Assembly (NCBI GenBank): GCA_028716165.1
Contig: JAQUQI010000005.1
Location: forward strand, 24,996-88,995
DNA length: 64,000 nucleotides
Direction of reading: 5' to 3'
DNA from: Candidatus Omnitrophota bacterium
Lineage (GTDB): Bacteria; Omnitrophota; Gorgyraeia; JABMRG01
Shown here: positions 1 through 19,044 of the stretch, piece after piece
How positions within the stretch are numbered: position 1 is the stretch's first letter
How the letters are laid out: the number at the start of each line of letters is the position of its first letter
Made by a program: the position numbers and the translations under genes
The notes under the pieces: generated by a model
The model's database searches: none
The model's input: the letters and a program-made list of their open reading frames with translations, nothing else
What the model was told of the DNA's origin: nothing

Positions 1-3000
1 ACTTATGTTTTTAATTTTGACGCGGAAACAGGGCGCGTTACGACCGGCGAATTAAAACGTTATGCGGACAGCGGAAGGCCGATATTGATAGCTCTTGAAT
101 ATACCCCGGGCAAAGAAGGAAAATCGCCATCATTTAAAGCCAGGGTTTTTGGTTCGCAACAGGACATGGAAGATGCCCAAGACTTGCTTACAAGCGGCTC
201 CCAGATCGTGCTTGTTTCAAAGGCCGATTCTTTTGTGGTCCATGAGGTCCAAAAGGCCGGCGAAGGATATGTGGCAAGGCTTGACGGTAACGGAGCTCCT
301 GTTGTGTGGATCCATGCGGAATATAATAAAGGCAACCCTGATGTTGAAAGATCAGGTGCTGTTAGCGCAAGCATACAGGACATGCGCCTTATTGCTGATA
401 TTCAATCTGTGTCAAAAAAACTCAGATTAAAAGGTCCAGATGGAAATGATATTACCGGTTTAGCCCAAATTACCGATGCTAACAATCTTGAATCTGTCTT
501 GAACAAAGACTTGGGAGAGCCTGTGCAGGTCTCAACAGAACTTCCGGATCATAAATACGTTATTATGGCCTATAACAGCGGCACGAAGCAGGTCCTGCCT
601 TTTTACGGCAAAAGCACGTTTGATGTTTATACGCAGTTTTATAATTCGCCCGAACACGAAAAAGAATTTGAATTGCTCAATCTTTTAAAGATAGGAAACA
701 TCATTTATACTGATGATAATTCTTCCTGGCTGGGCGGTTTTGAGCCTCAACGGGGCGGGGTGCGAAGGGCGAAGATTACCATGTTCAATGACAACAAGGG
801 GAATGAATACCCCGTGAAGATAGGCCATGACGCGCAAACAAGAGATGATTTGTATGCCTACGGCGTCCTTGAAATAGATATAAGAGATGATTCTTTTAAT
901 CCAACGGGATCATGGGTGTATTATCTTAACAAACAAGGACTTCCAATAGATCGCCTGCCGCATGAAGAGGCTTGTAATTTAAGAAATGTTAGCATAAATT
1001 TTAGCGGTAAGAATGAAAACGCGAAGCTTTTGATAAATGATATCGCGTACGGGCAAAATGCCCATGATAAGTTCGGGGCATTTTTACCTTTTGCCGCTGA
1101 TGTTTATGATGTTTCTGGCGGCGCGCCCCGGCCTGTGGGCATACATATTGATGATAGGGGCAGAAACCGTATTTATTTTGAATTTACATCCCAGGCAACG
1201 CAGTCAGCAGACGGCACATGGTCTGTTCCCGCGCTGGCTTTTTGCGATATGTATGACGACCAAAACGTGTATTTAGGTCAATACGCTTTTAATTCTATAG
1301 TGAAGTGGACCGAAGGAGAGGACGGAGCCAAGGCATATACATATGAGATAGGAAACGCTCTCTCCTGGGGGGTCGAAGCCCAGTCAGGACCGTACGCGGG
1401 CAATAAATTTGTGTATATTTTAGACAGTACCAGGAAAAAAGATGATGGTAGTTATATTATATCTAATGAAATGCTCGGCAAGCTTGGTACCACAGAGCGC
1501 GGGTCCCATATTCTTAGCGGTAAAGATTTGGATACTTTAGGCATAGATAAAAACAGCAAAGCCGTGAGCAGGATACTAAGGGCGGCCCAAATATATCAGG
1601 CGGGCTTTGAAGCCGGGGACCCAAGCCGTGTTATGCTGTTTGACAGCTCTTATCCGGGAAGGGAAAAAGAAGCGGTCGCTATGTCACAGTACCCTGGCGG
1701 TGAATTGGAAATGGTTATTCGCGGCCCGAATAGCAAGGAGATTGCCAGATTTACTTTTGGAGATAGTGACAGCTATGACACCAATAAATTCGGTCTTTAC
1801 AGAAAAATAGTTGAGGATTTTCAAACAGACCAGTCTGAAAAGATTAAACAGATGGCGTTAAGCGAGGGCATTATTACAATACCTGTTAAATTGGGTAATT
1901 ATTATATTGGTCACAGATATAATAATGAGACATCATTATATGAGCATGGTATGTTTAAAACGCTTGCAGATCTTGCGAAAGCCGGATATGCAATCTATGA
2001 TGAAATTACCGCGGCGCAAATATTCAGGCTTGACAGTGACACCCCGGCGAAAATAGAGTTTTTTGCAAACGATGGTTCAAGCCTTGGCAGGGCAATAACA
2101 GATCAAAAGCTTAGCTTGTCGGTTTTTGATAAAGGTGGAGAAAAAATAGGCGAAAACGTTTATGAGTTTGTTTTTGACAGGTTGACAGGCAATGTGGTTA
2201 TAGGCAAATTTTTGTATTTTATTGATACAAAAAAGGCTGAAGAAATGCTTGGTAAAATGCTGGAGGCATTGCGTGAAGACCCTGTCGCGCTTGAAGCATT
2301 TAACCTTTTAACAGGCGCGGGCATAAAAGACAGCGGCAAATTAAGCCAGGCGCAACTGGACGTATTGTATACCCTTATATTTAAAAATGATTTGGGAGAA
2401 TTCCATGAAAATGCCGCGGATACTGAAAAAACGCTTGAAGGCCTAAGACTTGCTTCATCAATGCTTGCAGCTTTAAGGGGTAATCAAGGCGCTTTAGAAG
2501 CGTTTAACGCATTGACTAATGCCGGATTTGCTAATGAGGGTTATCTGGCAGACAGCCAATTAGCGGTATTATACGGCATGATATATGATGGTGAGGGCGA
2601 AAAACATAAGCATGCAGGAGATCCTAAAACAACAATGGAGGGTATTATATTAGCCAAAAAGGCGCTTGACCAATTGAGGGCCAACCCGTCGGAATTAGCG
2701 GCGTTTAACTTAATAGCGGGAGTTAACATCAAGCTTTCCGGGCCGCTAACCGCCGAAGAATTGACCGCTCTATACACACTGGTATATGATTCAGACGGAG
2801 ATTTTTACAGGGATTCCGCCGGTTATGCATATACCCCTATTGAAAGTATAAAATTTGCCGGGCCCATGCTTAAGGCCCTGCGCCTTGACCTGGAAGCCCT
2901 AAAAGCATTTAATCTTTTTACAGGCGTAAATATCCAGCCAACAGGCAAATTAAGCCAGAGTCAGATAAATGCTCTTTATGGGCTTATTTATGGCGCGAAT

Positions 3001-6000
3001 GGAGACTTCCAGCCAAATGCCACAGACCCCATAGCGACCATAGAAGGTTTAAAATTAGCTGTTGCTATGCTGGACAGCCTAAGAAGCAATCCGGAGGCAT
3101 TGAAGCTGTTTAATCTTTTTACAGGCATTAATATTACTTTACAGGGAGCGTTGAACGGAAAACAAATAGATGCCTTGTATGGGTTGATATATACAAAAGA
3201 TGCGGATGGTAAAACTATATTAAAAGATAATGCCGATGACCCTGCTTCCGCTATTCAGGATATTATCACCTTCTACAACAATGTAGTCTCATATGTTATA
3301 GCCATATCAGCCAATCCCAATGCCATGGCCTTAGCAAACAGCGCTTTTGGTTTAGGCCTTACACCCAATATGACGGCAGGCAATATAACCCAGGCCCAGC
3401 TTAAGATATTCTCCAATAGCGACCTTGGCATACTCTATGATGAAGGAGGAGTTTTAAGAGATATTGATACTGTGGTGATGCTTTTTAAAAGGATGGGTGA
3501 GATATACGCTAATTGGGATAGCCAGGCGCAGTCTGCCTTGAGGATATTTTCTGGTGTGGACATAGCGCCAGGCCTAGACTCTTTAAACTCTGATCAGATT
3601 AAAGCTTTTAACACTTTACTATTTGATAGAAATGGTAATCTTTATCTTACTGATGCTGAATTTGATGCCCAAACAGTAGTAGCTAATTTAAAGAGGGTTA
3701 TTTACAAAGTAGGAGATACTTATGTTACAGAAAACGGTTTAGCGGCATACAGCCTGAATAGCAATAGCCCGGGGGTAAAACCCCTCCTGCTTGCGCAGGT
3801 TACAAAAACCGGTAAACATGATAGGATGTATATAATTGATCCGTCTATACCTAATACTGATAATGTCTATGCCGAGATTCTGGAAGGCGATATTGATCTG
3901 GATGCCGGCACTATCAATCTGAAGTTTGTTGTTAATGTAGGGCGTGACAGCGCGGGTAATCGCATATCTTCTGTCACAAACTATGATGGCCGGGAGGTCC
4001 AGAGGGGAACACTTGCGGGCTTTATAGACAGTTCCGGCGGTTATATACCGTCAGATGTTTATATAGACGATTTATCTGATATCGCGGCTGTCAGGATGAA
4101 AATTACTACATCTTTGTTTGGCCAGCAATGGTATGAGGAATATGATTTTAATGGAAACATTGTCAGAACTATAAAGCCTTATCCTGAAACAGGCCAGGCC
4201 GAGGTTGTTAAATACAATGTTAAGGAAAATGGATCATTTCCGGATAGCCGGTCATATTTATATGAATATGATAACAACTTGAACGATATAAAGACTGATA
4301 AGCCTGTTATGGATTTGAGGGAATCAAAAATTATCGGCTATACGGATATGAATGACCCTATTGCTTTTGTTCATGATTCAGTTACCGATTCTTATTGGCA
4401 GGAAATAATAGACCCTGTTGGCAGGGTAAAAGCGAAAGTAATAGGGGATTATAATGCGGCTGCAGGTATTTTTAGTCCTATTGCCATAGAAATCCCTTCG
4501 TATGATGGATATATTGGGGCATCAGCTATCGGCTCCAGCAAGATGTATGAATATTCTAAAGCTAATGGATATAATACCGCCGCGTATGCCGGTTCAAAGG
4601 TTCTTATTGAAACAGGCAAAATAGAAATTATAACAATAGACGGCCGCGTTTGTGTAAGAAGCTTTTACTTTAATAATAAGACCAATGTCAGCTGGCAGGA
4701 GATAAAAGACGCCAGAGGTAATATTATAGCTAAACTCTACCAGTATCCTGATTCGGGTTCATCCGGTTATCGCGCGTCATTCGTTGAAATTATGCAGTAT
4801 GAGCCCGGTATAGGTTCAATAGAAGGCATTGCCCAGAGCGGAAAGCTTTATTTATTCACGGGCAGAGAAGACTTGAGAGATTTTAGCATAAGCCAATATG
4901 CTGATAAACCTGTCCTGACGGAGAGTTATCTTGTAGATCATTCCGGAAAGGCTATTACTACGGTTGAGGCCCTAAAGATGGACAGCCTTGTTTACCAGTA
5001 TGAGAACAAGGTCTCAAAATTAGTATGGCAGGAAGAAAGGGACAACCGTGGACGGCTGATAGCAAAGTATACCGGTGTAAGTTCGCGTGATGACCAAGGC
5101 AACTTGACAGGTTTTTCAAGAAAGGTTGTTGAGAAGATTACGCCCACAGGCATATTGGGTGTCATGCATATATCCGCTACAAGTAATAGTTATTTATATG
5201 AAACCTACCAAGGTGAAAAAGGAAAACATCTTAGTGAATATAGACCCGAATTTGCTTATGTGTCAGCTCAAATTATCAATGATTCCGGCAATGCAGTAGA
5301 TTCGCTTGCAGGTATTGCGCAAGATAATACAGTTACTTATAGATATGTAAATCACAAAACACATTTAGTGTGGGAAGAGGTGCGAGACGGTTTTGGGCGC
5401 ATTATAAGACGCTATGACGGTGAAACTTTAGGGGACAAATCAAGCCCATTGACAGAACCCTTTAAACGTGTTCTTGTTACCGATCAATATTATGAAGGTC
5501 TCATTGGTGATTTTGGTTTAAGTACCAGCAGTGAAGTTTATTCGCTGGATGAGTCCGGTAAGAAAGTCGGTAATCCGATTGACCAATCAGAACTTTTAAG
5601 CAATAAGTTTGAAAAACTTGATTTTGAACAATTGTCCGCAACCGATAGTTTTGGCGCGCTTAAGAGTATTTTTGATGAACAGGGCAGGATATATTATCAA
5701 GGCAGCCGTGCTTACAAAAGATCTGATATACGGGGAGAGGGTTTATTAGAATACCGTGAAATAAAAAATAATACGGGATCTATTGAAGAGAGGTTTGAAG
5801 GTTACAAGGATCCAAGCGGTAAATTCGTTAGCAATCTAAAAAGATACTTTTTCTACCCGGACAGCGATATCTGGCGTTCATTTAGTATTGCCCAAAAAAC
5901 AATTCTTACTATATTTGTTGACGGCAAAGAGATTATTTTTTCTGTTGCCAATAGAACAAGTTTTGATGAACAGACAGGGGATATATCTTATAGCTGTAAG

Positions 6001-9000
6001 AAGGGCAAGGGTATTATTAATTTCCCGCAAATTACATATACCAATCTGGAGCAGAGCCTTGACCTGTTATTTGAAGATGCCAAAGGTTTTGAATATGTGA
6101 CCTATGCATGGCAAGAAATAAAAAATAATAGAGGATGGCTTGTGCAGACGAGAGAAGGGTTTGGCCTTGATGATAAAAATTTTCCGATGGGCGTTCCCAG
6201 ATACATTACTTTCTTAAAAGGTTATTCGTTGGATATACCCATTAGTTTAGAGGCTCACATATATAAATATGATGACAATGCCGGTGAGCGTCTTGACGGA
6301 CAGGTTATCCGGACAAAGCAAACAGAATCAGATTATAGGCACGGTACCAAGGTTGGGTCTCTGCAGGGCCTGCATTTTACAGATAACATAGCTGTATACG
6401 ATGTTAATGACACCCGTATCAACAGAAAGTCTGTTAATAATAGCGGATACAGAATGGACGGCAGGCTTGCTTGGGAGATTCACGCCGGGAAAATGTTTAG
6501 AGATAAGGTTTATTTAACATATTTTAATGAGTTGGAATGCGCTGATTATAGCGCGCGGCTTGTCGGTGTGCTTTCTCCGATTGCGGGTAGCAAGTTAAAT
6601 ATCACAAACCGTCTTGCCGAAATAAAACAAGAACCTTATAAGACACATTATACTATTATGATACCAAGCAAGCCCGGGTCTTATATTGTGTGGGATAAAA
6701 CGCCTGACCAGGCAAAAAATGTTTGGTTTGCTGTTGACCGGTTTATGGATGGCGATGAAATTGATACGGAAAAGGTTTCATCCAAAGGCTTTACTCGGGC
6801 CGTAGAAAACAGGAATATTTTTACAGCCCCATCTGAAGATTCGGCTCTTAACCTCGCGGAACAAGACGGGAAATATTTTTCCGAAGGGGAATTCTTGTAT
6901 GAAATTAAGAATAAATACACCCCTGTTTTGTGGAGATCCTATCATGAAAACAGCATACGAGAATACATTGGCGTTCAATTCAATAAACACATTAAAAATT
7001 CATGGTTATATAATGCTATTGTGGAATCCAATAAACGCGATACATTATCGCCTATCGTTATAACAACGGCAGTATCTTTGGCAGCCATAACATTTTTACT
7101 GCCTTTGGCATTGTTTTTGTTTACATACGTTTTGTCGTATGTTCATTTCAAAAAACTCGGCAAAAAGCAAATCGCGGATACCAAAAGTTCCGGTTTGCCG
7201 GGCGAGGGGGGAGATATTGCTTCGGGCAGGGCGCCATCCGCACAGGCGCCTGGTCACGCGTCTGCTAAAGTTTCGCCTGGCGCGCCTTCTGTGCCTGATC
7301 AAGAAATTAGGGTCAGGGTTGCCGATATAAATCGTCATTTGTATCTTAATAAAGCTTTCACTGATTATTTGATTTCTTTGTACTATAAGACTGATGAAGA
7401 ACTGTTCGCTTTGTTAGATGCCTATTATCCCGACACTCATAGTGAAAAACCCGCCATGCTTTCAGAGCGTTATAAATACAGTATGGTATTGAATAACAAT
7501 ACGGTTTCGCCTGATAGCAAGCAAAGAGCAAAGTATGATTTTGTTGATAGAGTTTTTACAAAACCTATATCATATTTGATGCTTGCAATCATGATTGACC
7601 AGGCTGAAAAATGGGACTGGATGAATAAAGGCGAACTTGATAAAGGTGACAGAATTACAGGCGGCCTTGCAGATAATTTCTGGCCGTTTACGGACAGGGA
7701 TATGAAACGGCTGTTTGAGTACTTTAAAGCAGACGGAAAAGACCCTATCTTGGAATTAGGCCTGTATAAGTATCTTGGCGCAACAACGCTCCAGCAATGG
7801 TATATGGACGCTAATATAAAGGCTCTTAAAGAGAAAGCAGATAAAAATACGACCGAGAAGCAAGCGAAAGCTAATGTTAAGAAAAAGAAAGACCATAAAT
7901 TGGAAAAAGGAAAGCTGATTGAAGAAGCTATCAAACCCGCTAAAGAGTGGCTTGCTAAAAGATATGAATATGAAGGCCTGCATCAGACTGTATACCCTAT
8001 GAAGGTTAATAAGATTATCAATCTCGTCTGGCGTGTTTTCGCTTTAGGCGGGACTGCCGGCTTGATTGCTATGGCAATAACTTCATTTTCATCGTTTGGT
8101 GTTATTGGCCTTGTTTTTACCGGATTGATCTGGTCGTTTGTCCTTGTTGAAACGCATAAAATGCTTCAATATGCGCAGTTTCATAAGAATTGGCTCCAGG
8201 GCCTTCGGACCATGTTTAAGGCCAGGGCTGATTATAAAGGCCCTCTTTCAGAGGCCGAACTAAAAGTAAAAAAGAATTTCTTCAAGGCGTATTTTGGATG
8301 GATGGGGACATACGCGGCTGTTATAGTGGGCTTTAGCCTGCTTTATAGTGTTGGCAGTATACCATGGTTTGGTTGGCTTGCCGCTATCCCTATTTTAGTG
8401 ATTTCTTTGCGGGAATCTTTCAGGAGCTGGTGGTATATTTTTACAGAATCTGCCGCCACGGCAATAAGCCGTAACCAAAGACTGGATAGCCTGAAACGGT
8501 ATGAAGATATAGGCAAACAAGAGCTTGACAGGATACGCCGCAATGAATATTTGAAGGATGTTTTTAAAGATGTTGTTATAGAAGCAACGCTTTCGGTGGA
8601 GTCAGGTTTTCATCTTATATCAAAACAGGAAGAACAGGCACTTATAAAAGTCCTGAACGATCCGAAAGCAAAAAAGTTGCCGGATCTTAAAAGCCCTCAT
8701 GCTAAACAGGAAATCATCAAATGGTTTAATACGATACTTATGTTTGATGAGGATGAATTTAAGAGAATATATGACCAGACGAAACTTGATGAGCTTAATC
8801 CGTCAATATTCAAGGGGACAGGTAAAAAGAGAGTTTTACCCACACGCGATTTTCTTGACGCGGAAGACGGTGAGACAAAGGATGCCAAGGGCGTTATCAC
8901 AGAATATACACCCGCAGGCATTATAAAATCCGGTTTTTATGTGTTTAAAGAAGAATTCAAAGAGTCGTGGGAAATTTTTCTTAGAGATGATATTTTTAAT

Positions 9001-12000
9001 GGTGTAGCAGTTGATGATGCTTTTCTAGAACGCCTGATGGATCCCAAGACAACCCTTAAACAAACCATAGAAGACATCGCGCAAAAATTAGGCAGAACGC
9101 AAAAGGATATAGAAGAATACATAATTTCAAAATGGATAGTATTTCGTGCTGACGGGTATTTAAAGACACTTCTTTTTGCTGAACGCGCGGGAGAAGCGGC
9201 ATACAGGGTTTTAATAAAGCACAAATTTAAAGACGAAAATGGCCGTGATCCAAGTGAAGCGGAAATAAACGATATTTTGAAAAAACATCTTATGTTTATT
9301 CATGTCCATGAAGATATAGATCCGGATATACAGAACTGGGGTGGAAAGAACCCTAGCGAGATTATTAATATATTATGCGATACAAACAGGCCGCAAGGAA
9401 CCTATACGATAAACGGCTGTTCTTATGCTGATACAGGTAGCGAAAAGAGCTTTAATAGAACATTTACGCCCCAGGATTCAAACAAAATAATTCTTTCAAC
9501 GAAAGAATTTAAAGGTCATGATTATCTTAAGGATGAGGCAAAAAGATGGGTTGTTAAAACCGATAAGTGGTCAGTAACAGCTCGTTTTATAGAAAAGTTT
9601 TTGAAAGACATAGTCAAAGAAGACGCTATGATTGTCAATCTGGATAGGGATCATTTTTTCTATCCATCCGAATTTTTCATGCTCCCGTTTTTAGCGCAAA
9701 GATTTACTTCCGAAGATAATCTTGGTTATCTGACCACAAGGCTTGATATGAGGACGGGGTATGTCGCCCCTACCGGCGCCGCGCATCAGGTAGCAGAAGA
9801 TACATGGAATTTAAGGACATTGCTCGCGGAAGCTCTTTTGGGCGCGTCCTCTTATTACGGCCCGGGATTAGTGCGTTGGAGTGTTATGAGGAGCTGGGGC
9901 GCTTATATGTCTAATATAGAGGACACCGCCGCGGCGCACGAAGCTATAATGGATGGCATGCGCGGCGACCATACTACCTGGATTACCTGGGGCAGGCCAA
10001 GAGAAATGGTCGGCGCTTCTATCCTTGATTTTCAGAACAGGTTTGGCGGACTTGTTATTGATGAATTTCTTTCAGTGCATTATCAGAAATTATTAAAAAG
10101 CGATAAGGCGCATTGGACTGAAAAGCTGACAATATTCCAGAATTTTGATTTTTACTTTAACAAACCATTGATACCGCACTTTAATCTACTGATCTTTTTG
10201 TTCTCATTTTTTATTAATTTTACTCCGTTTTCATTTTTTGCCCTGCCGATATTATTTGTAAGCCTTGGGTATCTGTTTTCACAGGCTATAACATCGGGAG
10301 GCATAAGATTATTCCATGCCAAACAGCCGTTTTTAAAGGCCTGGGCGTCTTATTCAAAAATGTTCTGGGGCCTTGTGTTTACTTTCGTTCCTTTGATACC
10401 CATGCACGGCGAGAAGGCATTAAATGCTTTTAAGGGTACCGCAGGAAGATTCAGCAGCGGTATTAAAGATATTTTCTACCCTGCCGTAAAGTTTAGGGAA
10501 TTATACAATCTTTACAAGCCGTCCATTCGCTGGGGAGTCGCATTATTAGGGATATTATGCTTGGCGCCGACACATCCCTGGGCTATTGTGACCCAGATAT
10601 TTTTTCATATATTCCCTATCGCGTTTATTTTTGGGCCTTTTATGAAAAATGCCCCTGCTAACAAGAAGATAGCGGCCTCTGTTTTTGGCGTAAGCGGAGC
10701 ATTGTTTGCTTTAAACGCCATCTTTGCCTTTATGCCTATGCCTTTTGTAGCGGCAGTGGCTTTAGGTATCATTATTGCCGCAGGGCTGACTGGTAAAGAA
10801 AAATATACCAAGGGTATAACGCACGGGTTATTGGCTATAGTATATTATCTGTTAAGAATAGATGATATCTTTTTTGATCGTCCCGGAGCCCGGGGCCCAG
10901 ATGCAAAAGGTGTAAAAACCAAAGTCAAAGACCGCAAGTATAGCCCCTTAATGACATCATTGCTGATATCAGTATCCCTGCCTTTTTATGTCCTGCGGCT
11001 TGATTTATTAGGAGCATTAATAAAAAAACAGGATTCAAAAGCGGAATTAGGGGCTGGTTTGGAATTGGGCCTTGATCTTTCAAGAAAAATATTTAACCCT
11101 TTGAATGAGTCTTCCGGAAAATTTGCCGCTCTCATGAACGATTCACTTAAAGCGCTTATGTCTCTGGCACAATCCGACCAAAACTTAGACGCTTATTTGC
11201 AAAATTTATTAAGCAAAGAAGATAATATTTCTAAAAATATAAGCATAAGGGTATTAAAGAACTTGCCTGTTAACGCGGCAAGGTATCTAAATGATATGGG
11301 TTCTGTTGAAATAGTTTTAAATGAAAGATTTGTGCTTTCTCTTCTTAATGATTATGACTCATACCCTGTTGTAAAATATATACTTGCCGAACGCCTGTTT
11401 CATGAATTAGGCCATGATAATAAGACTGGAACAGCGCAGGAAGAAGTTGACGAAGAGGCCGAGCTTATAGCCAGGGACTTAGAACTTCACTCCATCATAT
11501 CCTCTGATATCCAAAACGAAATCAATAAATATTTTCAAGATAAAAAACCATCTTTTCCTTCAGGTTATTATTTTGTATTTTTAGACAAACTGTCAAAACT
11601 TGGCGATGGCCAAAGATCCGCGAGTATAAGAGATTATATAAGGCAGAACGGCCTGGCTATAGGCAGGCTTAGTGATGATGAAATAAATGCGCTATCGGTT
11701 GAGGAGCTTGTTCAATTGATAGAGAGTGTTCTTGACATGAGCGGGAAAGAAATAGCGAATAAGTTTTTATTGTATTCGGCCGCGCCTGGTACCGGCAAAG
11801 GCGAAGTTATGGACGCTATCTTTACCGAAGGCAAAGGTAAATACGCTCATCTTGTTGATAAGCTGACACTTTATCACACAAGGTCTCCGCGCGTTAAAAA
11901 AGGTATATCCGAAAAAGATGGCATTGCCTATCATTTTAGAGGAGAGGACGAGCTAAGACAGCTTGAAAAAGAGGGCAAGATTATTACCGCTCTTGTAAAT

Positions 12001-15000
12001 AACCAGCTTCAAGGTATGGCATTAGAGACTTTTTACGAAGAAATTACAATAAGGAAATCCGATTTAGCTGATAGCAAAAAGGCTGTTGTGCTTAATGATG
12101 ATATAAAAATAGAGGAAACCGATGAATACATAAAAATCCGCCGAAAAATACGCGGCCTGAATGATATCTTTAAGGGGCCTAAGCTTGCGATACTTGAGGG
12201 CGGCTATGGATGGTTTGAGAGTATTAAAAAAGACCCGCGTTATAAAGAACAACATAAAGATGTTTTAACAATATTTATATCTCCTTTTACTGATGAGGAA
12301 ATAGGTATAAGGGCTCTTAACAATGCCTGGGTTGATTCAAAATTCAAATTGCCGGAAGAAAAGGCGGCTGCTTATAATGAAATTTTTGTTGTAATTAAGG
12401 AATTGCAAAACGAAATAAACCTTGTCAATGATGCCAATTTACAGCAAAGGGTGATAAGAGCCGTAGAGGATAACGCGCCTTCGCTTAAGGATTCCGCGGC
12501 TTGTCACAATGCTCAAGTAATAGATAGCAATGAATTCTTAAGCAGCTTAAAAATTGATATTAAGTCCCCCGGCGCGATAGATAAGGTCAAAGCCCTCGCG
12601 TATGAAGTAAACAGAAGGCTTTCTATGCGGGACGGCGAAATCAAATTCGCTTATTCTATCAAAGACGACCCCGCCGGTTATGACAGGTATCAGAGGGTGC
12701 TGGAAGGCATTATGCAGATAGTTAATAAAAATGAATATGACACCGTTTTGACGAACACATGGGGCTATACTGATAATGCGAGAAATCAAAACATAGAGAA
12801 ACTAACAATGGAATTTTCAAAAAGCTTTTTCTCGCATGTGGTAAAAGGCCTCCGTGATTCAGCCAAGGCCAGTTCAAAGGCTTTTGCAAAACGAGCATAT
12901 CCTGAGGGGTTATTAGATATGGCAAAAAAATATTTCAATTCAGATATAGAGAAAACCCTTAAGCAATTAAAGGATTGGGCAAAAGCTTATAATGACGCTG
13001 TCAAAAACAAAGAGATACTGGATACGGAAGAAATGACAGTGGAAAGACTGCTTAATATAAAAACAGCAGAAGGCCAGACGGATGCTGTAGAATATTTTCA
13101 TATAATTGATTCTGACGGTAATTATATCGGCATCAAGCCAAGGCCTCTTGCGCATCTTTCTAAAGCAAATGAAGATTGGCACAGGAGCGTATTTGTCATC
13201 GTAGTTGATGAACAAGGCAGGATGCTGGTGCAGACTCGTTCTGCCAATAAAGACCATGCCCCTAATGCCAGAGATATTTCTACGGGCGGGCATATGGGCT
13301 TATTGGATGATGGGCGAAATCTCGCTGATACGACAAAAGAAGTTGCCCTAAAAGAACTTGGGGAAGAGTTATTTAACATAGGCAATCTTAAGGATTATAG
13401 TATTTCTCCTGACAGGCTTTCTATGATAAGCGAGGTAGACGGGCTAAGGCTTTCCGTTCAATATACGACCCCTGTTAAAGGGTGGGATAATGAGCGTGTC
13501 ACTGTGTTTCTTTATTGCGCATCAAAAATGGATATAGAAAGAATTGACGCGGCAGCAAAAGCGATAAGTGACGAAAAGGCTTCATTTACCGCTTTTGAGG
13601 GTGAGGTAGCGGCTATGGAATGGGTTGCAATATCAGATGAATGGAATAAATTTAAAAACATGCCAGATTCTGACAGGCGCGTCAATTATGGGGCCGGTTT
13701 TATAAAGTTGTTTACGGATTACGATCGGGATGTATCGGATCCGGATACTGTTTTAGGAAAGATAGCGCGAATGTCTAATGATCTCAAGGCGCTCTATGCC
13801 AAGTTTTCAGAGTACGAAAAGAGGCTTGGCGAAAGATCTATAGGCCAATTTGTTGGGAAACCATTTGATCCTAACAGGCATATTTATCGTCCGAAGGTAG
13901 GCCCTGATGGCGAGATGCTGCCATTTTCCGGCTTCACAGTAGCTAAGAGGATAACGGAAGGGAAGCTGCGTGAGGCATTAATCGCATTTCAAGAAACAAT
14001 GAAAGAAGAGCTTAAAGCCGCGGGCATGGGCGATGTAGTGGCATTTCTTGATCCTGCCTCGCTTCATATGACTATAGCGGATATTGATCCCAGCCGGTCA
14101 TATCCAAAAGGAACAAGTTTTGAACAAGCCGGACAAAGGTTAGGCCAGATAGACAGCGCTTTTAAAGATATAGGCACGCCCGGCGCAGTACAGTCTACGG
14201 TCCGTGGCTTAGGCCTTGGGAATACGATCTCGGCGCTTGTAAGATTTACTCCAGAAGATCTGGACAAGGCCCTTTTGCTTGAAGGCGCTGTTCAGAAATC
14301 CGCGGATGTGTTCAATAGGCAGTTTACCGGGCATATAAGCTTAGGATATATAGCAAAAGAACCTGAAGATTATGACAAGTTTATCGCGATTCTCCAGAAA
14401 TACGCAGATTATAATTTTGGCGAACTGTTAATTGATACAATTGCTTTATTGCATTTTTCCGACATGAATCATTATACGCCTTTAAAGGAGAAGAATTTGG
14501 ATACAGGTGAGATTACAGACCGTTCCGAAGCAAAAGAGTTTTTGGAGTTTTTAAGAAAAGCCCCCGAAACAGCTCAGGATGAGGTTGTAGGTGGAATTTT
14601 CGGCATAATGACGGCAATTTTGGAAAACGACCCCCGGGCTGGAGATGTCAAGAAAGCCCCCGAAACAGCAGAAAGGCCCGCTGACGAGCTCGTAGATGAA
14701 CTGTACCGCAATAAAGAGCCTATGGGTTCTATACGAAATATTGCCGACTTGGAAAAACTGGCATTGGATAATATTAATGATAATATGGTTGTGGAGCCTA
14801 TAAAAAAGGTTCTTATTGATATTCTTAATGATGAGCAGACGGCCGGAGAGGATTATATTTTTGTTCGCGAAATGGCGGCTTATGCGTTGAGAATATTCGC
14901 GGATATCAATATTATACGTTCGCTGATGACCGTTGCTTCGCTTGAAAACGCGATGAACACTGAAACAGCTGGCAATGAGCTGCCGCCAGCCATTGCGGGC

Positions 15001-15519
15001 CTTGATCTTGCCGGCGTTGCCGATTATTCGGTTGAATATCAGCTTGCCTTATCATTACTGGACTATTCGCCTTCCGGACAGCTGTTTGTTAATAGAGACA
15101 AGCAGGCAGTGATAGTTTACTCGGATGCTCTCAAGCAAAGCAGGGCATTGCAGGATATCCTTAGGGCGTCTGTTCAGGACGAGAGAAGGTTCTATTTCGT
15201 TAATAAGACATCCCTAAGTTCCGGTGAATTTTTAGCAGGGGTCGGCCTGGATACTTTAAATTTTGATAATATTATTGAAGCCGAGGATATGTCCGCAGGG
15301 CAAATAGCCGAAACTGTAATGTCCGAATTGGCTAATCAGCACATAACCCAAGCCCGCGTTTTTGCCGCATTGGATCAGGATTTAATGTCGTGGAAAACAG
15401 CTTCTATTGAAACACTCCTCATGCTTCTAAAGGACAAGAGGTTTGAGATAATATCCGATTACAGCCAGCAGCATGCCGAATATATCAGGACGCATGCCCA
15501 GGCGTTAACAGCAGCATAA
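1..15519 (+). CDS. Giant multidomain membrane protein, 5'-partial (>5144 aa). Contains tandem ~68-aa repeats, Rhs/YD-like repeats, three TM clusters, a guanylate-kinase-like domain with degenerate P-loop, a Nudix/IDI-like domain, and a C-terminal module paralogous to the ORF at 16714.
   Basis: One uninterrupted frame from base 1 to the stop at 15517-15519. The ORF track begins at a TTG at 85, but codons 1-84 have no stop, so the true start is upstream. Hydrophobic helices lie at about nt 7040-7140, 7990-8420 and 10150-10960. GK-like motifs are APGTGKG ... LYHTRSPR..DGIAYHF ... ILEGGYGW ... IFISPFTDEEIG. The IDI/Nudix-like stretch is HRSVFVIVVDEQGRMLVQTRS...GGH...KELGEEL. Confidence 0.85.
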   Translation, partial: TYVFNFDAETGRVTTGELKRYADSGRPILIALEYTPGKEGKSPSFKARVFGSQQDMEDAQDLLTSGSQIVLVSKADSFVVHEVQKAGEGYVARLDGNGAPVVWIHAEYNKGNPDVERSGAVSASIQDMRLIADIQSVSKKLRLKGPDGNDITGLAQITDANNLESVLNKDLGEPVQVSTELPDHKYVIMAYNSGTKQVLPFYGKSTFDVYTQFYNSPEHEKEFELLNLLKIGNIIYTDDNSSWLGGFEPQRGGVRRAKITMFNDNKGNEYPVKIGHDAQTRDDLYAYGVLEIDIRDDSFNPTGSWVYYLNKQGLPIDRLPHEEACNLRNVSINFSGKNENAKLLINDIAYGQNAHDKFGAFLPFAADVYDVSGGAPRPVGIHIDDRGRNRIYFEFTSQATQSADGTWSVPALAFCDMYDDQNVYLGQYAFNSIVKWTEGEDGAKAYTYEIGNALSWGVEAQSGPYAGNKFVYILDSTRKKDDGSYIISNEMLGKLGTTERGSHILSGKDLDTLGIDKNSKAVSRILRAAQIYQAGFEAGDPSRVMLFDSSYPGREKEAVAMSQYPGGELEMVIRGPNSKEIARFTFGDSDSYDTNKFGLYRKIVEDFQTDQSEKIKQMALSEGIITIPVKLGNYYIGHRYNNETSLYEHGMFKTLADLAKAGYAIYDEITAAQIFRLDSDTPAKIEFFANDGSSLGRAITDQKLSLSVFDKGGEKIGENVYEFVFDRLTGNVVIGKFLYFIDTKKAEEMLGKMLEALREDPVALEAFNLLTGAGIKDSGKLSQAQLDVLYTLIFKNDLGEFHENAADTEKTLEGLRLASSMLAALRGNQGALEAFNALTNAGFANEGYLADSQLAVLYGMIYDGEGEKHKHAGDPKTTMEGIILAKKALDQLRANPSELAAFNLIAGVNIKLSGPLTAEELTALYTLVYDSDGDFYRDSAGYAYTPIESIKFAGPMLKALRLDLEALKAFNLFTGVNIQPTGKLSQSQINALYGLIYGANGDFQPNATDPIATIEGLKLAVAMLDSLRSNPEALKLFNLFTGINITLQGALNGKQIDALYGLIYTKDADGKTILKDNADDPASAIQDIITFYNNVVSYVIAISANPNAMALANSAFGLGLTPNMTAGNITQAQLKIFSNSDLGILYDEGGVLRDIDTVVMLFKRMGEIYANWDSQAQSALRIFSGVDIAPGLDSLNSDQIKAFNTLLFDRNGNLYLTDAEFDAQTVVANLKRVIYKVGDTYVTENGLAAYSLNSNSPGVKPLLLAQVTKTGKHDRMYIIDPSIPNTDNVYAEILEGDIDLDAGTINLKFVVNVGRDSAGNRISSVTNYDGREVQRGTLAGFIDSSGGYIPSDVYIDDLSDIAAVRMKITTSLFGQQWYEEYDFNGNIVRTIKPYPETGQAEVVKYNVKENGSFPDSRSYLYEYDNNLNDIKTDKPVMDLRESKIIGYTDMNDPIAFVHDSVTDSYWQEIIDPVGRVKAKVIGDYNAAAGIFSPIAIEIPSYDGYIGASAIGSSKMYEYSKANGYNTAAYAGSKVLIETGKIEIITIDGRVCVRSFYFNNKTNVSWQEIKDARGNIIAKLYQYPDSGSSGYRASFVEIMQYEPGIGSIEGIAQSGKLYLFTGREDLRDFSISQYADKPVLTESYLVDHSGKAITTVEALKMDSLVYQYENKVSKLVWQEERDNRGRLIAKYTGVSSRDDQGNLTGFSRKVVEKITPTGILGVMHISATSNSYLYETYQGEKGKHLSEYRPEFAYVSAQIINDSGNAVDSLAGIAQDNTVTYRYVNHKTHLVWEEVRDGFGRIIRRYDGETLGDKSSPLTEPFKRVLVTDQYYEGLIGDFGLSTSSEVYSLDESGKKVGNPIDQSELLSNKFEKLDFEQLSATDSFGALKSIFDEQGRIYYQGSRAYKRSDIRGEGLLEYREIKNNTGSIEERFEGYKDPSGKFVSNLKRYFFYPDSDIWRSFSIAQKTILTIFVDGKEIIFSVANRTSFDEQTGDISYSCKKGKGIINFPQITYTNLEQSLDLLFEDAKGFEYVTYAWQEIKNNRGWLVQTREGFGLDDKNFPMGVPRYITFLKGYSLDIPISLEAHIYKYDDNAGERLDGQVIRTKQTESDYRHGTKVGSLQGLHFTDNIAVYDVNDTRINRKSVNNSGYRMDGRLAWEIHAGKMFRDKVYLTYFNELECADYSARLVGVLSPIAGSKLNITNRLAEIKQEPYKTHYTIMIPSKPGSYIVWDKTPDQAKNVWFAVDRFMDGDEIDTEKVSSKGFTRAVENRNIFTAPSEDSALNLAEQDGKYFSEGEFLYEIKNKYTPVLWRSYHENSIREYIGVQFNKHIKNSWLYNAIVESNKRDTLSPIVITTAVSLAAITFLLPLALFLFTYVLSYVHFKKLGKKQIADTKSSGLPGEGGDIASGRAPSAQAPGHASAKVSPGAPSVPDQEIRVRVADINRHLYLNKAFTDYLISLYYKTDEELFALLDAYYPDTHSEKPAMLSERYKYSMVLNNNTVSPDSKQRAKYDFVDRVFTKPISYLMLAIMIDQAEKWDWMNKGELDKGDRITGGLADNFWPFTDRDMKRLFEYFKADGKDPILELGLYKYLGATTLQQWYMDANIKALKEKADKNTTEKQAKANVKKKKDHKLEKGKLIEEAIKPAKEWLAKRYEYEGLHQTVYPMKVNKIINLVWRVFALGGTAGLIAMAITSFSSFGVIGLVFTGLIWSFVLVETHKMLQYAQFHKNWLQGLRTMFKARADYKGPLSEAELKVKKNFFKAYFGWMGTYAAVIVGFSLLYSVGSIPWFGWLAAIPILVISLRESFRSWWYIFTESAATAISRNQRLDSLKRYEDIGKQELDRIRRNEYLKDVFKDVVIEATLSVESGFHLISKQEEQALIKVLNDPKAKKLPDLKSPHAKQEIIKWFNTILMFDEDEFKRIYDQTKLDELNPSIFKGTGKKRVLPTRDFLDAEDGETKDAKGVITEYTPAGIIKSGFYVFKEEFKESWEIFLRDDIFNGVAVDDAFLERLMDPKTTLKQTIEDIAQKLGRTQKDIEEYIISKWIVFRADGYLKTLLFAERAGEAAYRVLIKHKFKDENGRDPSEAEINDILKKHLMFIHVHEDIDPDIQNWGGKNPSEIINILCDTNRPQGTYTINGCSYADTGSEKSFNRTFTPQDSNKIILSTKEFKGHDYLKDEAKRWVVKTDKWSVTARFIEKFLKDIVKEDAMIVNLDRDHFFYPSEFFMLPFLAQRFTSEDNLGYLTTRLDMRTGYVAPTGAAHQVAEDTWNLRTLLAEALLGASSYYGPGLVRWSVMRSWGAYMSNIEDTAAAHEAIMDGMRGDHTTWITWGRPREMVGASILDFQNRFGGLVIDEFLSVHYQKLLKSDKAHWTEKLTIFQNFDFYFNKPLIPHFNLLIFLFSFFINFTPFSFFALPILFVSLGYLFSQAITSGGIRLFHAKQPFLKAWASYSKMFWGLVFTFVPLIPMHGEKALNAFKGTAGRFSSGIKDIFYPAVKFRELYNLYKPSIRWGVALLGILCLAPTHPWAIVTQIFFHIFPIAFIFGPFMKNAPANKKIAASVFGVSGALFALNAIFAFMPMPFVAAVALGIIIAAGLTGKEKYTKGITHGLLAIVYYLLRIDDIFFDRPGARGPDAKGVKTKVKDRKYSPLMTSLLISVSLPFYVLRLDLLGALIKKQDSKAELGAGLELGLDLSRKIFNPLNESSGKFAALMNDSLKALMSLAQSDQNLDAYLQNLLSKEDNISKNISIRVLKNLPVNAARYLNDMGSVEIVLNERFVLSLLNDYDSYPVVKYILAERLFHELGHDNKTGTAQEEVDEEAELIARDLELHSIISSDIQNEINKYFQDKKPSFPSGYYFVFLDKLSKLGDGQRSASIRDYIRQNGLAIGRLSDDEINALSVEELVQLIESVLDMSGKEIANKFLLYSAAPGTGKGEVMDAIFTEGKGKYAHLVDKLTLYHTRSPRVKKGISEKDGIAYHFRGEDELRQLEKEGKIITALVNNQLQGMALETFYEEITIRKSDLADSKKAVVLNDDIKIEETDEYIKIRRKIRGLNDIFKGPKLAILEGGYGWFESIKKDPRYKEQHKDVLTIFISPFTDEEIGIRALNNAWVDSKFKLPEEKAAAYNEIFVVIKELQNEINLVNDANLQQRVIRAVEDNAPSLKDSAACHNAQVIDSNEFLSSLKIDIKSPGAIDKVKALAYEVNRRLSMRDGEIKFAYSIKDDPAGYDRYQRVLEGIMQIVNKNEYDTVLTNTWGYTDNARNQNIEKLTMEFSKSFFSHVVKGLRDSAKASSKAFAKRAYPEGLLDMAKKYFNSDIEKTLKQLKDWAKAYNDAVKNKEILDTEEMTVERLLNIKTAEGQTDAVEYFHIIDSDGNYIGIKPRPLAHLSKANEDWHRSVFVIVVDEQGRMLVQTRSANKDHAPNARDISTGGHMGLLDDGRNLADTTKEVALKELGEELFNIGNLKDYSISPDRLSMISEVDGLRLSVQYTTPVKGWDNERVTVFLYCASKMDIERIDAAAKAISDEKASFTAFEGEVAAMEWVAISDEWNKFKNMPDSDRRVNYGAGFIKLFTDYDRDVSDPDTVLGKIARMSNDLKALYAKFSEYEKRLGERSIGQFVGKPFDPNRHIYRPKVGPDGEMLPFSGFTVAKRITEGKLREALIAFQETMKEELKAAGMGDVVAFLDPASLHMTIADIDPSRSYPKGTSFEQAGQRLGQIDSAFKDIGTPGAVQSTVRGLGLGNTISALVRFTPEDLDKALLLEGAVQKSADVFNRQFTGHISLGYIAKEPEDYDKFIAILQKYADYNFGELLIDTIALLHFSDMNHYTPLKEKNLDTGEITDRSEAKEFLEFLRKAPETAQDEVVGGIFGIMTAILENDPRAGDVKKAPETAERPADELVDELYRNKEPMGSIRNIADLEKLALDNINDNMVVEPIKKVLIDILNDEQTAGEDYIFVREMAAYALRIFADINIIRSLMTVASLENAMNTETAGNELPPAIAGLDLAGVADYSVEYQLALSLLDYSPSGQLFVNRDKQAVIVYSDALKQSRALQDILRASVQDERRFYFVNKTSLSSGEFLAGVGLDTLNFDNIIEAEDMSAGQIAETVMSELANQHITQARVFAALDQDLMSWKTASIETLLMLLKDKRFEIISDYSQQHAEYIRTHAQALTAA
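2233..3700 (+). repeat. In-frame tandem array inside the giant gene: 5 clear and 2 degenerate copies of a ~201-204 nt (~68 aa) unit, consensus ..ALEAFNLxTGxNI..G.Ls..Q...LY.LIY..DGDF......DP....EGL.LA..ML..LR.NP
   Basis: ALEAFN / ELAAFN / ALKAFN / ALKLFN recur at nt ~2287, 2491, 2692, 2893 and 3094 with a 201-204 nt period. Two further decayed copies sit near 3330 and 3540-3650. Confidence 0.7.
4380..6160 (+). repeat. Dispersed Rhs/YD-like repeats inside the giant gene, motif [SVA]W(Q/E)E..D..G(R/N)(L/I)I..Y, at least 5 copies
   Basis: SYWQEIIDPVGRVKAKV (~4390); SWQEIKDARGNIIAKLYQY (~4691); VWQEERDNRGRLIAKYTG (~5025); VWEEVRDGFGRIIRRYDGE (~5375); AWQEIKNNRGWLVQT (~6110). These resemble the YD-repeat core D..GRL....Y, flanked by Y.YD/Y.YEN motifs. 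Confidence 0.4.
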
Positions 15520-16713: not shown

Positions 16714-19044
16714 ATGCACGGATTAAGGGTATTTAAAAAATCTTTGATATTTGTGTTAATATGCTGTTTTTTTATCAATCAGCAGCTTTTGGCCTGCGAA
16801 TTTTTTTGCCTAAGGCCCGCGTCTGTTAATAACTCCAACACCCCTCTTGTTTTACAGCAACCGGATGATTTAAACAAATTATCTGTAAAAGAACTTGAGG
16901 CCAAACTCCAAAATATTAAGTTGATTAAGCTGAAGGAGCTGAATAAATTGACACCGTCCAGCAAGGAGGAGCTTAAAGATCTCGCTGGCAGGGTAGCTGA
17001 AATGGGCGATTACTTGAGTGCGGTTATACAAAAAGAGTTATTGGGAAATGGTAAAAAATATGGCAATATTATGGAAAAATTTATGCTATTTTCAGCAGGT
17101 CCCGGAACTGGTAAGGATTATGTTTTTTCTAAAACATTTGGAAGAGAAAAAGAAAAAAATGCAAATAAAAAATGGAAGTATCCACACTATACAGATGGGA
17201 GCTTCTTTAAGTTAGTTGAAAAATTGATATTGTATCATTCAAGGCCGTTAAGAACAAAAGAAAATGAAAAAGACGGCTGGGAGTATAATTTTGACACAAG
17301 ACTTGATCATAATCGTATAAACACATTAGAAAATAAAGGAAAAATTAAAACCGCAACAGTAAACAGGCAGTTACAGGGTATGGCAATAAACGGATTTGAT
17401 GAGAAAGGCGTGGTAATAGAGAATGTTATCAATCCTGCAGATTTTAAAGCAGGTGATAAGGTAACAAAAACTATTGAATTTTTGGATGGAGAAAATCTCA
17501 AACAAGATGTTTTGGTTAAAAGGCAAGGCTTCGAGCAAAACCTGAAAATAACCACAGGTATAAAAGATGATGAAATAGGAGATGGCAAGCCCGGCGTCTT
17601 TATTGCGGGTGATATTATTGAAGAGGTTTCTCATAAAGATGTAACAGTTAAAAGGCCTGTAAAAGGCATAATGGATATTATTGATGGGCCCAAACTTGGG
17701 GTGGTTGAGGTAGGATATGGCTGGTTTAGGATGCTTACAGGTCCTCAATCTCCGACGAAGGATGTGTTCAAAATTTTTATAGCACCGTTTGACGAAAAAG
17801 AGATGCGATACATGACTAATGCAAGGAAATGGATTGAGCGCAGATTTACCAGCTATAATGAAAGAGCTTATGCCCATTTGTATATTTCATATAAGATGCA
17901 AGAAGCTAAGAAAGAATTATCAAACTTTAAATTCAAAGAAATAAGAGAATTAAAAAAAGACATAAAAGAACGCCTTAAAAAATTAAATAAAGATGAGGAT
18001 CTTATTGAAAAAGAGTTGGCTGATATTGCAGGCAAGGTTATGGAGTCTGGTATTAAAAAATTTGGATCAGACAAACAGACATATGCGAATCGTTTATTGG
18101 AATACGCAAAGCTTATAGAGAAAGAAGATTTTATAGTGCATCTGAATGAAAGATTGGAAAGCGATTTTGGTGATCCAAATGGAATAACGGACGTTAATCA
18201 AATAAGAGAAGCGAGATTGCTTGCTTACGAGATTAACAGAAGGACCCTTGCAAGGGATAGAGCTGTAGGGTTATCAAATGATGACAAACAGCCTGTTGAG
18301 TATGATAGATATAATAGATTGCTTGAAGGCATAATCCAGATTATGCATCGTAACGAATATGCCCAAAAAGGCGGTTTTGTTGTAATTAATAGGTGGGTAT
18401 TTGATCAAAGCAAGCAACAGGAATATGATGATGTTTTAAAAATACAATTTGCCGGAGCGTTTTTCTCAAATTTGATCGGAAAAATACAAGAAAAAATAAA
18501 ATCTCCTTCAGCAGGCATTGTCCCGGAGCGCGCGCCGGATTATGATGAGCAGTACATTTTAGCCGACGGGCTTCTTCGCTATTTCCCGGAGGGCATAATA
18601 AATGTCCCCGCGGAAAATCAAGCCGTGATAGTTTATTCAGATTCGCTCGCGGAAAGCGCGGCATTGCAGGATATAATCAGAAAGTCGTCAGCAGATGGCA
18701 GGAAATTTTATCTTGTCAATAAACAGGATTCCGTTTCCGCCGAAGATTTTTTAAGAAGCCTTAATATTGACAGGGATATATTTGAAAGCAATGTTTTTTT
18801 GCAAAACTCGCTTTCAGCCGATCAACTGGCGCTTAATATAGCGGCCGTGCTTAATAAAAACGGTATCCGCCAGGGCAGGGTGTTTGCCAGCGCGCAAGAC
18901 GATCTCATTGCCTGGAGCAGACAGGGCCTTATTGAAGCCCTTGTAATGCTACTAAAGGACAAGAAGTTTGAGATAATATCGGATTACAGCCAGCAGCATA
19001 CCGAATATATCAGGACGCATGTCGAGGCGCTGAAAGCGGCATAA
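16714..19044 (+). CDS. Secreted/lipoprotein 776-aa paralog of the giant protein's C-terminal region: GK-like domain with degenerate P-loop plus conserved C-terminal module
   Basis: RBS AAAGGAGG 6 nt upstream of the start. Signal peptide with a possible lipobox LLAC, then EFFCLRPASV. GPGTGKD...LYHSRPLR..DGWEYNF...VEVGYGW...IFIAPFDEKEM aligns with the giant protein's GK-like segment. The last ~150 aa align with the giant protein's C-terminus. Confidence 0.7.
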   Translation: MHGLRVFKKSLIFVLICCFFINQQLLACEFFCLRPASVNNSNTPLVLQQPDDLNKLSVKELEAKLQNIKLIKLKELNKLTPSSKEELKDLAGRVAEMGDYLSAVIQKELLGNGKKYGNIMEKFMLFSAGPGTGKDYVFSKTFGREKEKNANKKWKYPHYTDGSFFKLVEKLILYHSRPLRTKENEKDGWEYNFDTRLDHNRINTLENKGKIKTATVNRQLQGMAINGFDEKGVVIENVINPADFKAGDKVTKTIEFLDGENLKQDVLVKRQGFEQNLKITTGIKDDEIGDGKPGVFIAGDIIEEVSHKDVTVKRPVKGIMDIIDGPKLGVVEVGYGWFRMLTGPQSPTKDVFKIFIAPFDEKEMRYMTNARKWIERRFTSYNERAYAHLYISYKMQEAKKELSNFKFKEIRELKKDIKERLKKLNKDEDLIEKELADIAGKVMESGIKKFGSDKQTYANRLLEYAKLIEKEDFIVHLNERLESDFGDPNGITDVNQIREARLLAYEINRRTLARDRAVGLSNDDKQPVEYDRYNRLLEGIIQIMHRNEYAQKGGFVVINRWVFDQSKQQEYDDVLKIQFAGAFFSNLIGKIQEKIKSPSAGIVPERAPDYDEQYILADGLLRYFPEGIINVPAENQAVIVYSDSLAESAALQDIIRKSSADGRKFYLVNKQDSVSAEDFLRSLNIDRDIFESNVFLQNSLSADQLALNIAAVLNKNGIRQGRVFASAQDDLIAWSRQGLIEALVMLLKDKKFEIISDYSQQHTEYIRTHVEALKAA

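Follow-up and report, generated by a model that had tools for sequence, protein, structure and literature searches.

Divergent guanylate kinase-like modules in a giant protein and a neighbouring paralog from an Omnitrophota genome

The described proteins closest to the modules considered here are the guanylate kinases proper (Gmk; PF00625 and TIGR03263; PDB 2qor, 1s96, 1ex6 and 9lo3), which carry a P-loop of the form GPSGxGK(S/G)T. PhnN, a ribose-1,5-bisphosphokinase, is a guanylate kinase (GK)-like enzyme with a non-nucleotide acceptor, and Pro-Gly-x-Gly-Lys-Gly is the form taken by the P-loop of adenylate kinase (GxPGxGKGT in E. coli Adk). The GK domains of MAGUK proteins (PSD-95/DLG, CASK, MPP1/p55 and ZO-1) have lost the P-loop Lys and Gly, bear a Pro at the hinge and stand within SH3–GK supramodules of animals, with MAGUKs other than MPP1 lacking the P-loop altogether. 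Herein, two copies of a GK-fold module are described from a stretch of 64,000 nt of a Candidatus Omnitrophota genome (assembly GCA_028716165.1, contig JAQUQI010000005.1, positions 24,996 to 88,995 of the forward strand; hereafter the window), one lying inside a giant open reading frame (ORF) and the other in a 776-aa paralog close by.

When set against Gmk, the family to which these copies belong has a P-loop of the form xPGxGKG(E/A/Y), a beta-hairpin insert in the part that binds the nucleoside monophosphate (NMP) and a helical insert of ~90 aa before the lid. Its modules form part of proteins that are thousands of residues long, fall below the Pfam and NCBIfam cutoffs and have their guanine residues replaced. 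The likeness to adenylate kinase lies in the PGxGKG P-loop and in an acid placed after strand 3 (PMC11313852 for the Adk acid). Unlike the MAGUK GK domains, those of the family keep the P-loop, the lid Arg and the adenine-contacting Asn, display Leu at the hinge and come from a bacterial host. Chlamydomonas FAP42 and mammalian LRGUK are eukaryotic axonemal proteins in which the GK part is near canonical (E 2.7e-74 for yeast GK against FAP42), and share no relationship with the modules beyond the fold.

The locus as a whole is akin to the Omnitrophota 'Archaeovorins' (bioRxiv 10.1101/2023.11.21.568195 and 10.64898/2026.06.07.730766), with a giant, transmembrane-anchored multi-enzyme ORF that is followed by PilZ, sugar ABC import and T2SS-like genes, and with NUDIX, HAD and HEAT content in common. 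A guanylate kinase-like domain is not mentioned in either of these accounts, and the module is therefore part of what they leave as unannotated sequence. One family member, P0007, does come from the single-cell genome of a Candidatus Omnitrophota bacterium, being 100 % identical to a 2962-aa ORF therein.

Guanylate kinase homology and the extent of the modules

Within the giant ORF the module occupies approximately 11758..12888 of the forward strand (aa 3892–4268, with the ORF numbered from base 85), and within the paralog approximately 17074..18513 of the same strand (aa 121–600, comprising headA at 121–231, headB at 314–376 and the tail at 500–600). A preliminary description, made from the letters of this DNA, had regarded the two regions as paralogous members of the GK family. 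Their paralogy is borne out by blastp, with 29 % identity over 530 columns (E 2e-45), and the landmark motifs that had been quoted are all present where reported: PGTGKG (11785), LYHTRSPR (11869), DGIAYHF (11917), ILEGGYGW (12190) and IFISPF (12271) in the giant ORF, and PGTGKD (17101), LYHSRPLR (17230), DGWEYNF (17272), VEVGYGW (17704) and IFIAPF (17773) in the paralog.

Both copies are genuine, very divergent relatives of guanylate kinases and possess the complete GK fold. The similarity far exceeds chance once it is judged with an alignment of 24 diverged family members, with 22–81 % identity to the window copy, built upon a 413-aa segment whose numbering is converted to that of the giant ORF by adding 3874. 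Used as a profile against PDB sequences, this alignment retrieved 24 guanylate kinases at E-values of 7e-10 to 8e-3, and reached the GK domains of MAGUKs at E 0.06–0.6 only. Comparison by hhalign of the family with a GK alignment, in which the yeast reference was verified as identical to 1ex6, gave a probability of 99.65 % (E 4.3e-25), and the compact subfamily aligned globally to residues 1–186 of yeast GK at 99.8 % (E 2.8e-28). Structure prediction, suggested beforehand as a check, likewise produced a GK fold: with the 24-sequence alignment AF2 reached a pLDDT of 90.8 and a pTM of 0.85 (with 3 sequences, a pLDDT of 37), the best 50 of 78 Foldseek matches in the PDB (E ≤ 0.001) were all guanylate kinases, and the full-length matches among those listed had target-normalised TM scores of 0.59–0.77. 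The three parts of the GK fold, namely the P-loop core, the NMP-binding subdomain and the lid, span the whole of the reference chain.

Single models detect this relationship far less readily. Pfam returned no GK match at E ≤ 0.1 for the two halves of the giant ORF or for the whole paralog. With isolated segments of the giant ORF its Guanylate_kin model gave E 0.019–0.08 (13.1–15.1 bits, with a cutoff of 25.2) over the first ~76 residues only, and it did not match the paralog. Some relatives do exceed the 25.2-bit gathering threshold (P0027 with 28.8 bits and P0002 with 39.1 bits), and 12 of the 24 family members match at E < 0.01, such that the Pfam alignment proposed earlier leaves the window copies below threshold but finds the family. 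The best match of a single sequence in the PDB was the Listeria guanylate kinase 3tau (E 0.0013). Amongst NCBIfam models only TIGR03263 was reported, at 22.6 bits and E 6.8e-5 against an equivalog cutoff of 160.45, and the PhnN model gave no match at E ≤ 0.01. No model specific to the module exists in Pfam, NCBIfam, PHROGs or PADLOC. As PADLOC gave no match, and PHROGs returned a weak match to a guanylate kinase family alone (E 0.0078), a defence-system or phage reading is without support and was set aside.

With regard to extent, the regions first delimited (11770–12330 and 17085–17830) take in the N-terminal half only. The fold continues past the helical insert to ~12888 and ~18513, respectively, and the module is twice as long as first thought, because this insert of ~90 residues splits the GK fold. 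The assignment covers about 380–480 residues per copy of previously unannotated sequence. From its 5′ end, the module of the giant ORF begins with the P-loop, SAAPGTGKGE (11776..11805), which aligns to S7–T16 of yeast GK, with its Lys being aa 3905. Next is the acceptor-phosphate site, LYHTRSPR...SEKDGIAYHF (11869..11937), where R3933, R3936, E3943 and Y3949 align to yeast R38, R41, E44 and Y50. A hairpin, GKIITALVNNQLQGMA, stands in place of the guanine-binding segment (11959..12021), and core strands 3 and 4 (ILEGGYGWF ... IFISPF) occupy 12142..12339, with E4038 aligning to yeast D98 and human D101, and G4040 to yeast D100. The helical insert (12340..12585) is absent from canonical GKs and from the compact subfamily, the latter being gapped there. 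In the AF2 model its helices are found at segment residues 196–212 (starting just after strand 4 and overlapping the strand part), 216–233, 243–260, 264–272 and 275–280. The tail (12586..12888) is composed of the lid-like AYEVNRRLSMRDGE and a helix bearing YDRYQRVLEG, after which come strand 5 (TVLTN) and, at the C-terminus, a long helix; its profile aligns to GK 145–176 and places R4204 upon the lid Arg. In the paralog the P-loop reads SAGPGTGKDY (17092..17121), the same GKDY and other motifs being retained in its ortholog P0004, and the insert in the NMP-binding part is longer and rich in beta structure.

The ATP site, the acceptor pocket and the missing hydroxyl

In the alignment of the 24 members, residues of the ATP site and of phosphate transfer are kept, and the guanine pocket is replaced throughout. 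Using segment numbering, invariant positions include the P-loop lysine K31 (yeast K14, human K17); R59 (R38, R41), R62 (R41, R44) and Y75 (Y50, Y53), which align to ligands of the acceptor phosphate; E69 (E44, E47); and E164 (D98, D101), corresponding to the water-mediated Mg ligand. The lid arginine R330 (R146, R148) and the adenine-contacting N350 (N168, N171) are each found in 23 of the 24. Also invariant are S24, P27, Q102 and E333, whilst G30, H57, N98, W169 and F170 are each present in all members but one. In human GMPK it is K17, R44, R137 and R148 that touch the transferring phosphoryl group, and N171 and R133 that hold the adenine (PMC12297293). Further conserved features particular to the family are a VNxQxQG hairpin, a GYGWF motif and an NRxxEG motif whose invariant Glu sits in a helix aligning to the GK lid helix, with an RRLxxR[DE]G motif being conserved in the long subfamily.

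The residues by which guanylate kinases read guanine show the opposite behaviour. Yeast S34 is replaced by Leu (23/24), Y78 by an invariant Gln, S80 by Leu or Met and D100 by Gly (23/24), and yeast E69 falls in a gap. Inspection of the GMP-binding residues, recommended in the preliminary description, therefore has a divided outcome, in that the Arg/Arg/Tyr ligands of the phosphate are invariant and those of the base are not retained. This bears upon the simplest account of the modules, that of an ordinary Gmk that has become part of a large protein, for which it can be said that guanylate kinases top every search. With every guanine contact replaced or deleted, with 22.6 bits against the 160.45 of TIGR03263 and with Pfam scores of 13–15 bits against 25.2, this account appears very improbable indeed; the guanine-reading residues argue that the module is not a GMP kinase, the TIGR03263 score agrees, and a true Gmk was rejected on these grounds.

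The same pattern speaks to the proposal, made at the outset, that the modules are non-catalytic domains of the MAGUK kind, binding proteins or phosphopeptides without any nucleotide. Loss of the guanine pocket is in keeping with this, as is retention of the phosphate-binding Arg/Arg/Tyr triad that MAGUK GK domains employ for phospho-ligands, and a signal-like leader on the paralog could be read in the same direction. However, K31 is invariant and G30 nearly so (23/24), where the MAGUK MPP1 has GASGVGRS; the lid Arg and the adenine-contacting Asn are each conserved in 23 of 24 members; the hinge residue is Leu (23/24) and not the Pro that is characteristic of MAGUKs (a hinge variant of S37P type is named for human GMPK; PMC12297293); the family profile favours enzymes (E 7e-10) over MAGUKs (E 0.06–0.6); and no SH3 or PDZ match to Pfam was found in the giant ORF or the paralog. 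An ATP site that is kept beside a base pocket that is rebuilt is the reverse of the MAGUK pattern, and a dead module of MAGUK type is not the best fit. We consider it improbable, and the ATP-site and transfer residues do not sustain the non-catalytic role initially put forward.

The P-loop itself had been called degenerate, which is correct in one respect only. Across about 45 modules of the core family its consensus is [YF]S[AG][APG]PG[TGS]GK[GD]x, and in the 24 aligned members S, P and K are invariant, with the G before K present in 23. Relative to Walker A in the form [AG]xxxxGK[ST] or GKGT, the A/G, G and K are all in place and the hydroxyl is replaced, with GKGE in the giant ORF and GKDY in the paralog. 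An Ala at the first Walker A position is canonical ([AG]xxxxGK) and occurs in the Pfam-positive guanylate kinase P0061 (SAPSGAGKST), and a Gly directly after the Lys is also seen in solved guanylate kinases that have GKGT (3tau and 4qrh). As the only real deviation is thus the missing Thr or Ser (Glu in the giant ORF, Asp-Tyr in the paralog), the term overstates the case. Amongst the family the first position after the Lys is G in 18 members, D in 4, H in 1 and A in 1, and the second is E in 9, A in 8, Y in 3, T in 3 and M in 1; only 3 of 24 members have GKGT.

Evidence on what this absence would mean for catalysis cuts both ways. In human GMPK, Mg is bound directly by S18 and through water by D101, and the K17A, S18A and R148A variants are inactive, with no detectable activity for S18A (PMC12297293). 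In E. coli adenylate kinase no protein side chain is bound to Mg, whose ligands are four waters and two phosphate oxygens; Asp84 positions the ion through water, and in the D84A variant kcat falls from 330 to 1.8 per second (PMC11313852). The acid equivalent to Asp84 is invariant in the family, and a Mg site free of a hydroxyl would, by this analogy, be compatible with NMP-kinase catalysis.

On balance, the modules are somewhat more probably than otherwise nucleotide-binding units of NMP-kinase type, probably still able to transfer phosphate, which would act upon an acceptor other than GMP. The P-loop would bind ATP or another nucleotide, and the remodelled pocket would hold a phosphorylated ligand that is not GMP, such as another NMP or a sugar phosphate. 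Mg would be held in the manner of adenylate kinase, or by the residue at the position of the missing hydroxyl, which is Glu in the giant ORF and Asp in the paralog, and phosphate transfer would most likely be retained. Such a module would operate alongside NUDIX and 2H-phosphoesterase modules in a recurrent cassette for the processing of nucleotides. A number of points weigh against this. Human GMPK is dead as S18A, its S18 being a Mg ligand, and the family has Gly or Asp at that place; the residue following this Gly or Asp is variable and in 8 of 24 members is Ala, which offers no substitute ligand; the mapping of the first two lid arginines (yeast R131 and R135) is ambiguous, with either R202, from the helix that follows strand 4, or the RRLxxR[DE]G motif as their counterpart; residue roles as a whole are assigned by alignment; and the probable export of the paralog sits ill with a need for ATP, other than for an enzyme acting within prey or lysate.

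The main rival is a nucleotide-binding pseudokinase, which would hold ATP, ADP or another nucleotide along with a phosphate ligand and, without transfer, serve as a sensor, switch or scaffold in the giant protein. The missing and variable Walker A hydroxyl, with Ala in 8 of 24 members, and the inactivity of human S18A (PMC12297293) are both in its favour, and tandem copies (two in P0002 and three in P0005) together with permuted forms are typical of scaffolding repeats. Set against this, residues needed only for transfer or for the positioning of Mg (the equivalents of R62, E164 and R330) are invariant or present in 23 of 24 members, and adenylate kinase is functional although no protein side chain coordinates its Mg (PMC11313852). 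A pseudokinase seems rather unlikely, although it is less so than any other alternative to an active NMP-kinase-type module.

For P-loop enzymology the family offers a natural experiment, in which a GK fold is combined with a hydroxyl-less P-loop like that of adenylate kinase and a rebuilt acceptor pocket, in tandem and permuted forms. Were the modules inactive, they would represent a bacterial path to a GK pseudoenzyme that is unlike the MAGUK path.

A family of modules within giant multi-enzyme proteins

A word-indexed homolog search yielded only 1–2 relatives, and an exhaustive profile search amongst 1.84 billion found 72 cluster representatives at E ≤ 1e-3, of which 48 were at E ≤ 1e-10. 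The weakest of these matches (P0061, P0062, P0069 and P0071) are ordinary guanylate kinases of ~200 aa with Pfam scores of 50–138 bits. Most family proteins are very long, at up to 7625 aa. Two subtypes can be distinguished: a long form of about 380–520 aa, to which both window copies belong, and a compact form of about 260–290 aa that is without the inserts. The modules are a rare and unnamed branch of the GK family in giant multi-enzyme proteins of Omnitrophota, encoded at loci of 'Archaeovorin' type. As much of the sequence of these giant proteins is unannotated, it is of value that the module is now tied to a defined fold and to NUDIX and 2H partners, with a concrete set of residues for mutation.

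In nine proteins, P0001 (L001 371-1693), P0008, P0011, P0012, P0014, P0021, P0024, P0030 and P0036, the parts follow one another in the order tail, P-loop half and strands 3–4. No other module parts lie nearby, and the profile segments overlap at about 230–260, inside the helical insert. This is the pattern that circular permutation by tandem duplication and truncation would leave. P0055, P0060 and P0065 display a different reordering, with strands 3–4 ahead of the P-loop half. The last three also belong to a second group of GKs inside large proteins (P0052, P0055, P0058, P0059, P0060, P0065 and P0066), in which the P-loop is LILYSGPSATGKSPLW and the members tested score 73–77 bits with Pfam, well above threshold. 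In this group, which takes an intermediate position between canonical GKs and the family studied here, the domain is fused in P0052 to a part from PEP-utilising enzymes, and in P0066 to MbnB-like and DUF1152 parts.

The partners of the module are recurrent. In the giant ORF it is directly preceded by a module of ~230–240 aa (aa 3650–3891; 11032..11757, forward strand) carrying HExxH as FHELGHD, within ERLFHELGHD; by blastp the same module comes immediately before the GK-like one in at least six other family proteins (P0003, P0006, P0007, P0025, P0031 and P0032). It has no Pfam match and may be a processing module akin to metalloproteases. Downstream in the giant ORF are a NUDIX-like module (13180..13641; Pfam NUDIX E 0.022, with the homologous segment of P0007 at E 7e-21) and a 2H-phosphoesterase-like module (13762..14484; Pfam 2H-phosphodiest E 9e-4), the latter being conserved in P0007, P0043, P0011 and P0063. 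A helical linker and NUDIX follow the GK-like module in P0003, P0031 and P0035, with matches to the linker only in several more proteins, and P0011, P0043 and P0003 have a 2H-phosphoesterase-like region after it; in all, NUDIX-linked and/or 2H modules come after the GK-like module in >10 family proteins. In P0007 it runs straight into a starch synthase (GT5), GT1 and NUDIX, with linker and NUDIX located further downstream, after the glycosyltransferases, and the 2H region further along, and in P0010 it is followed by a HAD hydrolase. As enzymes that handle nucleotides and nucleotide sugars, these partners are more in keeping with an enzymatic role, or with one in nucleotide binding, than with that of a pure adaptor.

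Leaders, tails and the surrounding locus

The giant ORF is listed at 85..15519 of the forward strand (5144 aa), but its frame 1 is open from base 1 of the window, bases 1–84 included, and runs to 15519; the gene and protein thus extend upstream, and 5144 aa is a minimum. It is followed on the same strand by a HAD-IIB-like protein (15567–16694, 375 aa), the paralog (16714..19044) and a 1430-aa protein (19218–23510) with HEAT, uridine-kinase/PRK-like and HAD parts. Beyond these are sugar ABC import genes, glycoside hydrolases, a PilZ protein, GH94 and a T2SS-C/PDZ protein, a neighbourhood as described for the giant genes of Omnitrophota known as 'Archaeovorins' (bioRxiv 10.1101/2023.11.21.568195).

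As was noted beforehand, the N-terminus of the paralog (16714..16824, forward strand) has the appearance of a signal peptide, with R5, K8 and K9, hydrophobic residues at 3–21 and LRPAS at residues 33–37. Homologs of the paralog have AXA-type sites upstream of the same LRPxS-type motif, and the protein is probably exported. A location outside the cytoplasm had been taken to argue for binding over catalysis, but this is weak. The HAD protein and the 1430-aa protein bear the same type of leader, and the uridine-kinase-like part of the latter has a canonical P-loop, GYSASGKS (GxxxxGKS), so that export does not correlate with a decayed P-loop at this locus; P0007, moreover, has no leader and is fused to starch synthase. 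In the giant ORF, a hydropathy scan detected at least 10 hydrophobic segments ahead of the GK-like module. Very basic loops just upstream of it hint, by the positive-inside rule, at a cytoplasmic module, with two marginal hydrophobic segments weakening this call. The 'extracellular' placement predicted for metabolic domains in giant proteins of Omnitrophota has been deemed unreliable (bioRxiv 10.1101/2023.11.21.568195).

The three genes that come straight after the giant ORF all have an LRPxS motif beginning at exactly residue 33 (residues 33–37), after the signal-like leader: LRPLS (15663–15677, ORF 15567), LRPAS (16810–16824, ORF 16714) and LRPSS (19314–19328, ORF 19218). The motif is absent from all other leader-bearing ORFs of the window, and (S/T)LR(P/A)xS is seen a few residues past AXA-type sites in P0004, P0010, P0013, P0016, P0017 and P0033. 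It may act as a signal dedicated to sorting or processing. At the opposite end, the giant ORF, the paralog and the 1430-aa protein all terminate in -AA, as QALTAA (15502–15516), EALKAA (19027–19041) and GIMAAA (23493–23507), respectively. The same ending occurs in P0004, P0010, P0013, P0016, P0017, P0018, P0023, P0024, P0031, P0034 and P0063, and such a conserved C-terminus resembles a recognition tag.

In its fullest form the picture would be of an active, hydroxyl-less enzyme of NMP-kinase type, with Mg held via water or Glu/Asp and a non-guanine acceptor, working in a NUDIX/2H cassette and deployed both in giant membrane-anchored proteins and in exported stand-alone ones (with the LRPxS leader and -AA ending), possibly on or in prey, and with natural circular permutation of the GK fold. 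Taken as a whole, this combination is doubtful.

The giant ORF and the paralog also share a C-terminal domain of ~175 aa (14995..15516 and its counterpart at 18511..19041, both on the forward strand), for which their identity of 50 % (E 3e-41) is far above the 29 % seen between the GK-like modules. The domain is also C-terminal in P0004, P0007, P0010, P0013 and P0017; it has no match in Pfam or NCBIfam, and the word-indexed search added one further homolog, P0073. Elsewhere in the giant ORF, aa ~2900–3360 (window about 8800–10200; SNIEDTAAAHEAIMDGMRGDHTTW and GRPRE) resemble, by eye, the catalytic region of glucan synthases of FKS/callose type. This stretch has no Pfam match and lies between hydrophobic clusters at aa 2332–2762 and 3362–3646. 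At aa ~700–1200 (window about 2100–3700), helical repeats of ~50 aa recur in tandem (ALEAFNLLTGAGI and SQLDVLYTLIF) and are without Pfam assignment. Finally, the exact sequence of the 776-aa paralog is present on two metagenome contigs.

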